A stretch of 64,000 nucleotides of DNA from a virus (Duplodnaviria; Heunggongvirae; Uroviricota; Caudoviricetes). The stretch lies in the IMG/VR virus record IMGVR_UViG_3300009034_000003; one strand, written 5' to 3'. Numbering within the stretch: the stretch's first letter is position 1; every line of letters starts with the position of its first letter. The notes under the pieces are model-generated. The model did no database searches and was not told the DNA's origin. It saw nothing but the letters and a program-made list of their open reading frames with translations. Both the position numbers and the translations under genes were made by a program. Below are positions 24,280 through 25,335 of this stretch, piece by piece.

Positions 24280-24652
24280 ACTAACTGAAAGTGAATTTGA
24301 GTATTTGTACCGTTCGGATCTGGAGCAGCCACTGACGCGCTGGTGTGGTTCCCCTGATGAAATCTGGATTGAGTTAGTAAAAAAAGACTTGGCGGATATA
24401 GAGATCAGTGCTAATACGGATAGTCACAAGCCATTGTACGCTCTGATACCTACAGAACGTGGGCGAGATGTGCTTGCTGAAATTTCTCCCCTCAGGAAGA
24501 TGATTTATTGTGTAGAGAATGGTTTTAAGTTTAATGCACAGATCCTTGTTGATAAGCTTTCCAAGAGGGAGTTACCAGCAGCGCTTGCTTCTGATAATGA
24601 CTGGGTTCGCAAAGAAGCTATCTCTCGAATGAAGGAGTTACTAGAACAATGA
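24272..24652 (+). CDS. HEAT-tail family protein
   Basis: FEYLYRSD N-terminal motif; C-terminal RELPAALASDNDWVRKEAISRMKELL. Confidence 0.55.
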   Translation: MGELTESEFEYLYRSDLEQPLTRWCGSPDEIWIELVKKDLADIEISANTDSHKPLYALIPTERGRDVLAEISPLRKMIYCVENGFKFNAQILVDKLSKRELPAALASDNDWVRKEAISRMKELLEQ

Positions 24653-25335
24653 GACAATCGGATATCGGGAAAAGAATGAAGAGGTATGAGGCGGTTACGG
24701 AATATACCCTACCGCGCCGGATCCCTGTTATCATTAGAATTGACGGTAACGCTTTTCAAGCCCTAACGGGTAGGAAACATGGCAAGCATCATTGGTCTAT
24801 GAAGTTTGTTGAGAATATGATTTCAGTGGCAGCAGCTGTAATGAAGAGTATGCAAGGGTGTAATATTTGCTACTGTCAATCCGATGAGATCAGCTTTCTC
24901 TTGACCGACTATAGAACTATTACTACGGAGCCCTGGTTCGGATACGATGTTAGGAAGTTGATATCCATCTCGGCAGGAATTGCAAGTGGAAGGATGTCCC
25001 AACTATACGGCGAGACAGTTTGTTTTGATTCACGGTGCTTTTCTGTGCCGCAAGATGATGTTTGTAACTACTTCATCTGGCGTCAGCTCGATGCCGAACG
25101 AAATGCTGTCCAGATGTTAGGTAGGGAACATTTTTCGCAAAAGCAACTTCACCACAAAAGCTGTAAGGAAATTAGACAGATGCTGCTCGAGCAGAAGTGC
25201 GTGTACTTTGAGCTGTGTCAACCTGTAAGGAAGACGGGCTTCTGTATTGTAGAGGGTATTATAGATTCAAACATACCCTCGTTTATAAATGACCGCGAAT
25301 ATATAGAGAGGCATGTGTACGTTAGAGAAGACTAA
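24649..25335 (+). CDS. Thg1-like protein (tRNA-His guanylyltransferase family 3'-5' nucleotidyltransferase)
   Basis: Thg1 signature blocks IIRIDGNAF (RIDG carboxylate), CQSDEISFLL (SDE metal-binding pair), FDSRCFSVP and YFIWRQLD, in the same order and spacing as the Thg1/TLP family; 228 aa fits bacterial TLP size. Confidence 0.7.
   Translation: MRQSDIGKRMKRYEAVTEYTLPRRIPVIIRIDGNAFQALTGRKHGKHHWSMKFVENMISVAAAVMKSMQGCNICYCQSDEISFLLTDYRTITTEPWFGYDVRKLISISAGIASGRMSQLYGETVCFDSRCFSVPQDDVCNYFIWRQLDAERNAVQMLGREHFSQKQLHHKSCKEIRQMLLEQKCVYFELCQPVRKTGFCIVEGIIDSNIPSFINDREYIERHVYVRED

Follow-up and report, generated by a model that had tools for sequence, protein, structure and literature searches.

A Thg1-like 3'-5' nucleotidyltransferase with a shortened tRNA-elbow hairpin, carried by what looks like a large uncultured phage

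Thg1-like proteins (TLPs) are 3'-5' nucleotidyltransferases. For the TLP of Bacillus thuringiensis (BtTLP; Protein Data Bank (PDB) entries 4KGK and 4KGM), a templated tRNA 5'-repair activity has been demonstrated. Here, D30 and D75 bind metal, E76 is the third carboxylate, and E12, R28, K43, S74, K99 and R131 serve 5'-end activation and nucleotidyl transfer (PMC3701042). In the archaeal TLP of Methanosarcina acetivorans (MaTLP; PDB 5AXK-5AXN), the tRNA elbow is bound by a flexible beta-hairpin (R198-R215) that the partner subunit contributes. Two hairpin residues, S213 and the “completely conserved” R215, touch the phosphates of U55 and G57; by gauging the length of the acceptor stem, the hairpin stops extension (PMC4820378). 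Eukaryotic Thg1 (3OTB, 3WBZ, 5XOX, 7CV1) carries the motif HINNLYN. The His of this motif stacks on the anticodon base G36 (PMC6471195); its Asn is used in adenylylation. The subject of this work is a gene that belongs with these enzymes. It lies at 24649-25335 on the + strand of a stretch of 64,000 nucleotides from IMG/VR virus record IMGVR_UViG_3300009034_000003, which was analyzed as a whole and is called “the window” below.

The gene is an open reading frame (ORF) for a protein of 228 amino acids, with ATG as its start codon and TAA as its stop. A preliminary description had called the product a Thg1-like 3'-5' nucleotidyltransferase on the strength of its length and of four motif blocks. 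These blocks are indeed found, in the order claimed: IIRIDGNAF (residues 28-36), CQSDEISFLL (76-85), FDSRCFSVP (126-134) and YFIWRQLD (141-148). The Pfam profile PF04446 (Thg1) matches over model positions 2-130 of 130 with 74.5 bits (E 9.8e-21), above its curated cutoff of 29.2 bits. The phage family PHROG 4717, named “tRNA-His guanylyltransferase,” matches residues 4-222 (E 2.2e-60). Among solved structures the best match is BtTLP (4KGK; E 2.6e-39, residues 5-226), with MaTLP next (5AXK; E 7e-9); eukaryotic Thg1 structures match weakly (E 1.9e-4 to 0.16). NCBIfam gave no meaningful match. Profile, fold and individual residues support the same identity, and the ORF does encode a Thg1-like 3'-5' nucleotidyltransferase.

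The fold was examined in an AlphaFold2 model built from an alignment of 46 homologues. The model is confident (pLDDT 89.9, pTM 0.86) and has the two domains, a palm and a C-terminal helical domain, of Thg1 and the TLPs. Foldseek superposes it on BtTLP (4KGM_B) with a TM of 0.89 over ~229 columns. The top eight matches are BtTLP chains, and all 32 of the significant matches are Thg1 or TLP structures. The catalytic palm domain spans residues 8-134 (24670..25050, + strand) and the C-terminal helical domain residues 135-228 (25051..25332, + strand). The preliminary description had proposed that both Pfam profiles of the family be tried, and the one for the second domain, Thg1_C (PF14413), gives no match at E<=1. 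As the model aligns with 4KGM across its length despite this, the C-terminal domain is present, though divergent.

Residues were numbered through a HMMER alignment to 4KGK, with their roles taken from the BtTLP paper (PMC3701042). D30, D75 and E76 of BtTLP correspond to D32, D79 and E80 of the window TLP, and E12, R28, F34, K43, S74, K99 and R131 to E14, R30, F36, K46, S78, K103 and R129. All of these, together with D127, lie in the palm domain. In an alignment of 37 sequences, BtTLP and distant phage copies included, the invariant residues are E14, R30, D32, G33, F36, S78, D79, E80, K103, D127, R129, N140, R145 and N152; K46 is not among them, being K or R among relatives. The metal-binding carboxylates that the preliminary description had pointed to are thus kept when the sequences are aligned. 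Counterparts of the invariant set are essential in BtTLP and Thg1 (PMC3701042). Judged from its residues, the two-metal active site is intact, and the enzyme is predicted to be catalytically competent.

The motif HINNLYN, by contrast, is not found. The equivalent residues 150-156, in the C-terminal domain, read ERNAVQM, with E150 standing for the His and M156 for the Asn. The BtTLP counterpart is SKNSISM, and M156 matches M158 of BtTLP, where yeast Thg1 has Asn. The protein is therefore a TLP, and not a bona fide Thg1. The eukaryotic enzymes share with it the superfamily, the palm fold and the carboxylate triad, but their identity to it is 17-22%, and non-templated addition of G-1 opposite A73 is not expected of it. 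BtTLP is the best match in sequence (~35% identity) as well as in structure, and has the same catalytic residues, the TLP-type Met and a similar length. It differs in the loop after helix 101-120, which is six residues longer in BtTLP, and in having H35 where the window TLP has Q37. MaTLP has the same fold (TM 0.75-0.78). Its acceptor-end contacts R136 and N137 are matched in position by R145 and Q146, and its templated two-step chemistry would be expected of the window TLP too.

Where the window TLP differs from both enzymes is in the hairpin that reaches the tRNA elbow. The interval from G197 to P210 is 12 residues long, as against 24 in BtTLP, which includes an R-x-R-W motif there, and 34 in MaTLP. 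In the profile-to-PDB alignment, ~22 residues of MaTLP (199-220), S213 and R215 among them, and 12 residues of BtTLP have no counterpart. What is left is a remnant, residues 198-206 (FCIVEGIID; 25240..25266, + strand), in which DSSP assigns strands 198-201 and 204-206 of the AlphaFold2 model, with a tight turn between them. With only a two-residue turn left of the hairpin, the enzyme cannot choose its substrate or sense where to stop in the way that MaTLP does.

The 12-residue interval is shared with 29 of the 37 aligned relatives. In a set of 80 TLPs drawn from the species genomes of GTDB, the interval is 24 residues long and carries an R-x-[KR]-W motif in 53, and the 12-residue form is confined to the four closest relatives (59-66% identity). 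These four come from metagenome-assembled genomes (MAGs) assigned to Thermodesulfobacteriota, Omnitrophota, Ignavibacteria and “Deltaproteobacteria.” In TLP copies of IMG/VR the interval runs from 13 to 24 residues. Nearly all members of the clade with the short hairpin come from contigs of uncultured phages and prophages, and comparably short hairpins are seen in some cultured phages. The thought that the short hairpin might be unique to this metagenomic clade was accordingly given up, since the TLPs of Mycobacterium phage Yeet and Aeromonas phage 2L372D are short there as well. A further mark of nearly all short-hairpin TLPs is the C-terminal end R-E-D (residues 226-228), at least 90% conserved and lacking from BtTLP.

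The gene is also under selection. Against an 83% nucleotide-identical gene on contig L022 (protein P0002, 84% identical), the ratio of nonsynonymous to synonymous substitution rates (dN/dS) is 0.10 (dS 0.83, dN 0.085), which implies purifying selection. The protein does depart from residues at least 90% conserved in the clade at 12 of 97 positions, where all other members but one depart at 0-6. Most of these departures are common to P0002, and are therefore fixed changes of the lineage and not decay. One of them is Q37, at a position where nearly all relatives have His; the BtTLP counterpart, H35, contacts the ribose 3'-OH (PMC3701042).

Phages do, of course, already have such genes. With tblastn, TLP relatives turn up in 159 deposited phage records; none reaches 60% identity, and the best is at ~42%. 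Phages of Bacillus (44), Prevotella (15), Caulobacter (13) and Mycobacterium (11) are among them, and many of the copies already carry an annotation. A large protein collection yields 1054 matching proteins, of which the nearest 120 are 54-84% identical and ~228-230 amino acids long. The contigs of close relatives look like phage or prophage, among them a 90-kb contig of small same-strand genes, a 203-kb IMG/VR contig and, in an Omnitrophota MAG, a prophage beside FeoB and sigma-54 genes. The cultured-phage members of PHROG 4717 (Bc431v3 gp143, Yeet gp117, 2L372D gp148 and the copy in 201phi2-1) resemble the window TLP in their full-length profile match and in being stand-alone genes among the early or nucleotide-metabolism genes of large phages. 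The window TLP differs in being at most 42% identical to any cultured-phage copy; moreover, many of those phages carry sets of tRNA genes (20 in Bc431v3) or a nearby polynucleotide kinase (Yeet), neither of which is seen in the window. The gene is a divergent new addition to a known and annotated phage family, and not a surprise.

The reading preferred here is that of a catalytically competent TLP of the bacterial and phage type, carried by a large uncultured phage and most likely serving tRNA 5'-end repair. Its probability is put at roughly 0.6. If BtTLP and MaTLP are a guide, a 5'-monophosphate RNA end would first be activated with ATP or GTP. An incoming nucleoside triphosphate, base-paired to the opposite 3' strand, would then attack the activated end with its 3'-OH, and such cycles would repeat in the 3'-to-5' direction until the lost 5' nucleotides are rebuilt. 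More tentatively, the ends so restored would be those of tRNA acceptor stems during infection, and translation would be kept running when host or phage nucleases remove them. The substrates would be host tRNAs, because the window encodes none. Binding would rely on contacts with the acceptor stem and in the active site, possibly together with a tetramer mode like that of Thg1. The enzyme would act alone, the window holding no kinase or ligase partner for it.

Several relatives fit this preferred reading. Identity between BtTLP (4KGK) and the TLPs of myophages of the Bacillus cereus group (for example MH638309.1, 114215-114919) is 74-77%, and phage-type TLPs are thus close to a tested enzyme. 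As an aside, BtTLP, the prokaryotic TLP that has been studied most, may have come from a phage or prophage, a point not discussed in the TLP literature that was checked. In Omegavirus phages the TLP is three genes apart from a polynucleotide kinase; in phage Yeet these are gp117 and gp120. One close relative has an AAA_33 kinase 2.4 kb away, and another has the RNA-repair nucleotidyltransferase RlaP two genes away. Beside the TLP of phage 2L372D no repair partner is annotated, except for a putative DNA ligase ~3 kb downstream. The kinase and RlaP neighbors fit the RNA-repair context that others have proposed for phage TLPs (PMC2904730; PMC7824862).

The assumed logic is that of Pnkp and Rnl1 of phage T4, which are analogues in function and not homologues. 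In T4, damaged tRNA is restored and translation continues despite host nucleases, the attacking nuclease there being PrrC. The folds and chemistry are unrelated, of course, since T4 heals and ligates breaks in the anticodon loop, whereas a TLP would rebuild 5' ends on a template. Nor is the idea new. The preliminary description had cautiously suggested tRNA repair as a way to counter host defences, or another 3'-5' role; RNA repair against such defences was proposed in 2010 for the Thg1 of phage 201phi2-1 (PMC2904730), and Iyer et al. (2021) list Thg1 among the RNA-repair nucleotidyltransferases of jumbo phages (PMC7824862). For Bc431v3, gp143 has been described as a putative tRNA-His guanylyltransferase, with tRNAs of the phage or the host as possible targets of modification (PMC3601020). 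The reviews and recent papers of the TLP field that were checked do not mention phages.

A number of points weigh against tRNA 5'-end repair. No nuclease is known to us that trims the 5' ends of bacterial tRNAs in the course of infection. The window TLP lacks the tip of the hairpin and the conserved Arg (R215 of MaTLP), the elbow-binding element that marks the MaTLP mode of general repair. Deleting this hairpin from MaTLP abolished binding of tRNAPhe-delta1 and left 5% of the activity (PMC4820378). The departures from the clade consensus, 12 of 97, include Q37 for His near the nucleotide of the activation site. ARAGORN finds no tRNA gene in the 64 kb, and Rfam finds no RNA family there at gathering thresholds. 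Polynucleotide kinase, RNA ligase and CCA-adding enzyme are absent from the 41 window proteins scanned with Pfam and PHROG; Walker A motifs occur in the window only in DnaB, thymidylate kinase and one 633-residue protein. When all window ORFs were compared by tblastn with 17 other TLP loci, only the TLP recurred, and no neighbor was conserved. Finally, reviews and recent papers state that the biological role and substrates of prokaryotic TLPs are still unknown (PMC6471195; PMC11957112). The missing elbow hairpin, tRNA gene and kinase or RNA ligase weaken the case for repair, and general tRNA 5'-end repair by this enzyme is plausible but unproven. With the elbow ruler gone, either an anticodon mode like that of Thg1 would have to be used or other recessed 5' ends would have to be accepted.

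These considerations lead to a broader and rather unlikely proposal, offered tentatively. Here, the short-hairpin TLPs would be a phage-borne functional subclass that has given up measuring from the elbow. Their substrate would be narrower or different, either a tRNA resembling tRNA-His and bound in the tetramer mode of Thg1, or RNA ends that are not of tRNA. They might act as stand-alone counter-defence against a host nuclease that attacks RNA 5' ends. PADLOC has no match for the TLP or its neighbors, and labeling the locus as a defence or counter-defence system was rejected on that ground.

Each of these two kinds of substrate can also be considered by itself. The enzyme might be dedicated to tRNA-His, adding or restoring G-1 opposite C73 through anticodon-dependent binding as a tetramer, with no general repair. 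Databases do name the family tRNA-His guanylyltransferase, and BtTLP is among the TLPs that can add G-1 opposite C73 in vitro (PMC6471195). Hairpin-less variants of MaTLP no longer bind tRNA in general, yet tRNA with the His anticodon is still bound, and the site formed by F174, N179 and R188 is required for G-1 addition (PMC4820378). The clade has no elbow hairpin, yet the equivalents of this site, F180, N186 and K195/R196, are at least 90% conserved. The window TLP itself, however, has L180, Y186, K195 and T196 at these positions, and it has no HINNLYN His to stack on G36. Bacteria, moreover, normally encode G-1, so that a need for the activity is not evident, and no tRNA-His gene is present in the window or in any short-hairpin TLP locus examined. 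For the window enzyme, dedication to tRNA-His is therefore doubtful.

More doubtful still is a substrate that is not tRNA at all. The candidates would be 5' ends of phage transcripts or small RNAs, replication primers, or 5' activation alone, leaving a cap-like App- or Gpp-RNA. The loss of the tRNA-elbow ruler and the lack of tRNA genes in the window would both fit such a role, as would the position of the gene among early or accessory genes, ~20 kb upstream of the replication module. The TLPs are, in addition, broader in RNA recognition than Thg1, but all tested prokaryotic TLPs favor 5'-truncated tRNA (PMC6471195). No candidate substrate was found in the window, where the Rfam scan was empty. 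The arrays of 37-nucleotide units described below were considered as a substrate and rejected: they are TIGR arrays, their transcript gives no sign of folding into a structure with a recessed 5' end (z -0.54), and such arrays do not occur with TLPs at other loci. The view that the gene is a decaying or non-catalytic relic is extremely improbable, since the departures from consensus, more than in nearly all other members, and the missing Thg1_C match are outweighed by intact catalytic residues, a dN/dS of 0.10, a full-length reading frame, a confident fold and the sharing of most departures with P0002.

All credible genes of the window are on the + strand, and GC skew is positive throughout. 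The 3' third encodes a FEN-type 5'-3' exonuclease, DnaB, DnaG primase, GTP cyclohydrolase I, thymidylate kinase, a family A DNA polymerase and ribonucleotide reductase. Neither virion genes nor cellular housekeeping genes were found in the 64 kb. Genes on a single strand, a replication and nucleotide module and the lack of housekeeping genes make the replicon look like a large phage, and it is taken to be an uncultured one. A megablast of 20-30 kb of the window against 50,697 phage records gave no match, and the PolA of the window is ~30% identical at most to that of any cultured phage. The GTP cyclohydrolase I (FolE, E 4e-55; 54734-55495, + strand) is encoded within the replication module. 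Phages typically use this enzyme to begin 7-deazaguanine modification of their DNA; QueC, QueD, QueE and DpdA were not seen in the window.

Immediately upstream of the TLP gene, an AAGGAG at 24632-24637 precedes the ATG, which overlaps the stop codon of ORF 24272-24652 as ATGA (24649-24652; the start region is 24632..24652, + strand). The overlap suggests that the TLP is translationally coupled to this ORF. Downstream, a gap of 110 nucleotides separates the gene from ORF 25446-25769 (+ strand). Scans of 20-30 kb of the window for consensus promoters and terminators gave sites no more frequent than in shuffled sequence. The upstream ORF encodes 126 amino acids and the downstream ORF 107, and both products end in a HEAT-like tail, LPxxLxxxxxx[VI]RxxAxxR[LM]xEL, which the TLP itself does not have. 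The preliminary description had placed the TLP within a cluster of HEAT-tail genes, and this is literally true. The upstream ORF is not conserved beside other TLPs, however, and the tail motif is absent from all 17 of the other TLP loci. With no shared neighbors and no tail motif there, the idea that the HEAT-tail genes and the TLP are functionally linked was rejected. The neighborhood is a coincidence of this genome, and not a conserved association.

The tails are nevertheless a feature of the genome in their own right. The repeat LPxxLxxxxxx[VI]RxxAxxRL is found in 19 of 86 ORFs of the + strand, as against 0 of 25 on the minus strand, usually 20-55 residues from the stop. The N-terminal sequences of the carriers are apparently unrelated. 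Examples, all on the + strand, are the ORFs 4330-4722, 9728-10111, 15885-16484, 20442-21291, 21838-22527, 23187-23677, 24272-24652, 25446-26335, 27804-28274, 36583-38148, 38388-39080 and 40710-41228. Six HEAT-tail proteins that were scanned matched nothing in Pfam or PADLOC. The tail could be a shared docking or targeting tag.

In the first part of the window, 12 strand-specific arrays, ~4.8 kb in total, occupy gaps free of ORFs between 579 and 18312. They lie at approximately 579-1033, 1399-1816, 2307-2800, 2846-3624, 3729-4109, 5090-5493, 10774-10986, 14144-14474, 14909-15877 and 17842-18312, among others. The unit of 37 nucleotides consists of TGAGAACC, a variable segment of 10 nucleotides, TGYRNAGCC, and a second variable segment of 10 nucleotides. 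If one mismatch is tolerated, the + strand carries TGAGAACC 157 times and the minus strand 23 times. A protein of 323 amino acids encoded nearby (18842-19813, + strand) matches PDB 9MTY, “IS116/IS110/IS902 C-terminal domain,” with an E of 8.7e-21. An architecture of dual-repeat TIGR arrays and a Tas protein with a Nop domain has been described (Faure et al., 2025; PMC12045711). The dual-repeat arrays and the 9MTY-matching protein fit this architecture, and would together form a TIGR-Tas system of very large size. For a single phage, the arrays seem unusually numerous and widely spread. No link between the arrays and the TLP was found, either in the fold test or at other TLP loci.

A metagenome search was made with a repeat-unit pattern that occurs four times in the window, in a collection that does not hold the window's own source contig. 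It returned two contigs only. The first (L018, SDBU01001667.1; 31 kb) encodes a Tas homologue of 324 amino acids with 38-nucleotide arrays on both sides (500-2100). The second (L019, JABAOF010084351.1; 2.6 kb) is a 78-82% nucleotide-identical relative of window positions 4142-6433; nothing else closely related to this phage was found. Other genes on the + strand are unusual as phage accessories: VIT+VWA, PP2C phosphatase, SPFH/Band-7, cohesin+dockerin, PfkB sugar kinase and DJ-1/PfpI, at 7218-9560, 28311-29231, 31478-32533, 34727-36160, 39428-40462 and 41922-42530. A periodicity of 33 nucleotides at 54301-54700, inside ORF 53974-54768 (+ strand), arises because the ORF encodes three copies of an acidic, alanine-rich repeat of 11 residues, AAEPVAEAVEA.

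Taken by itself, a TLP gene in a phage is an ordinary annotation, and nothing fundamental is altered by it. What the window adds is a divergent TLP under purifying selection, in a phage lineage that lacks cultured relatives and in which no tRNA, kinase or ligase gene is linked to the TLP. The function of prokaryotic TLPs is still unsettled after 15 years of biochemistry, yet relatives sit in 159 deposited phage genomes. In the window TLP, nature has made a truncation of the hairpin that matches the deletion mutants engineered in MaTLP. This, in turn, makes a question concrete and testable, namely what the phage TLPs recognize once the tRNA-elbow ruler is gone. Should the short-hairpin TLPs prove to be a functional subclass, phages would be the first physiological setting for prokaryotic TLPs.

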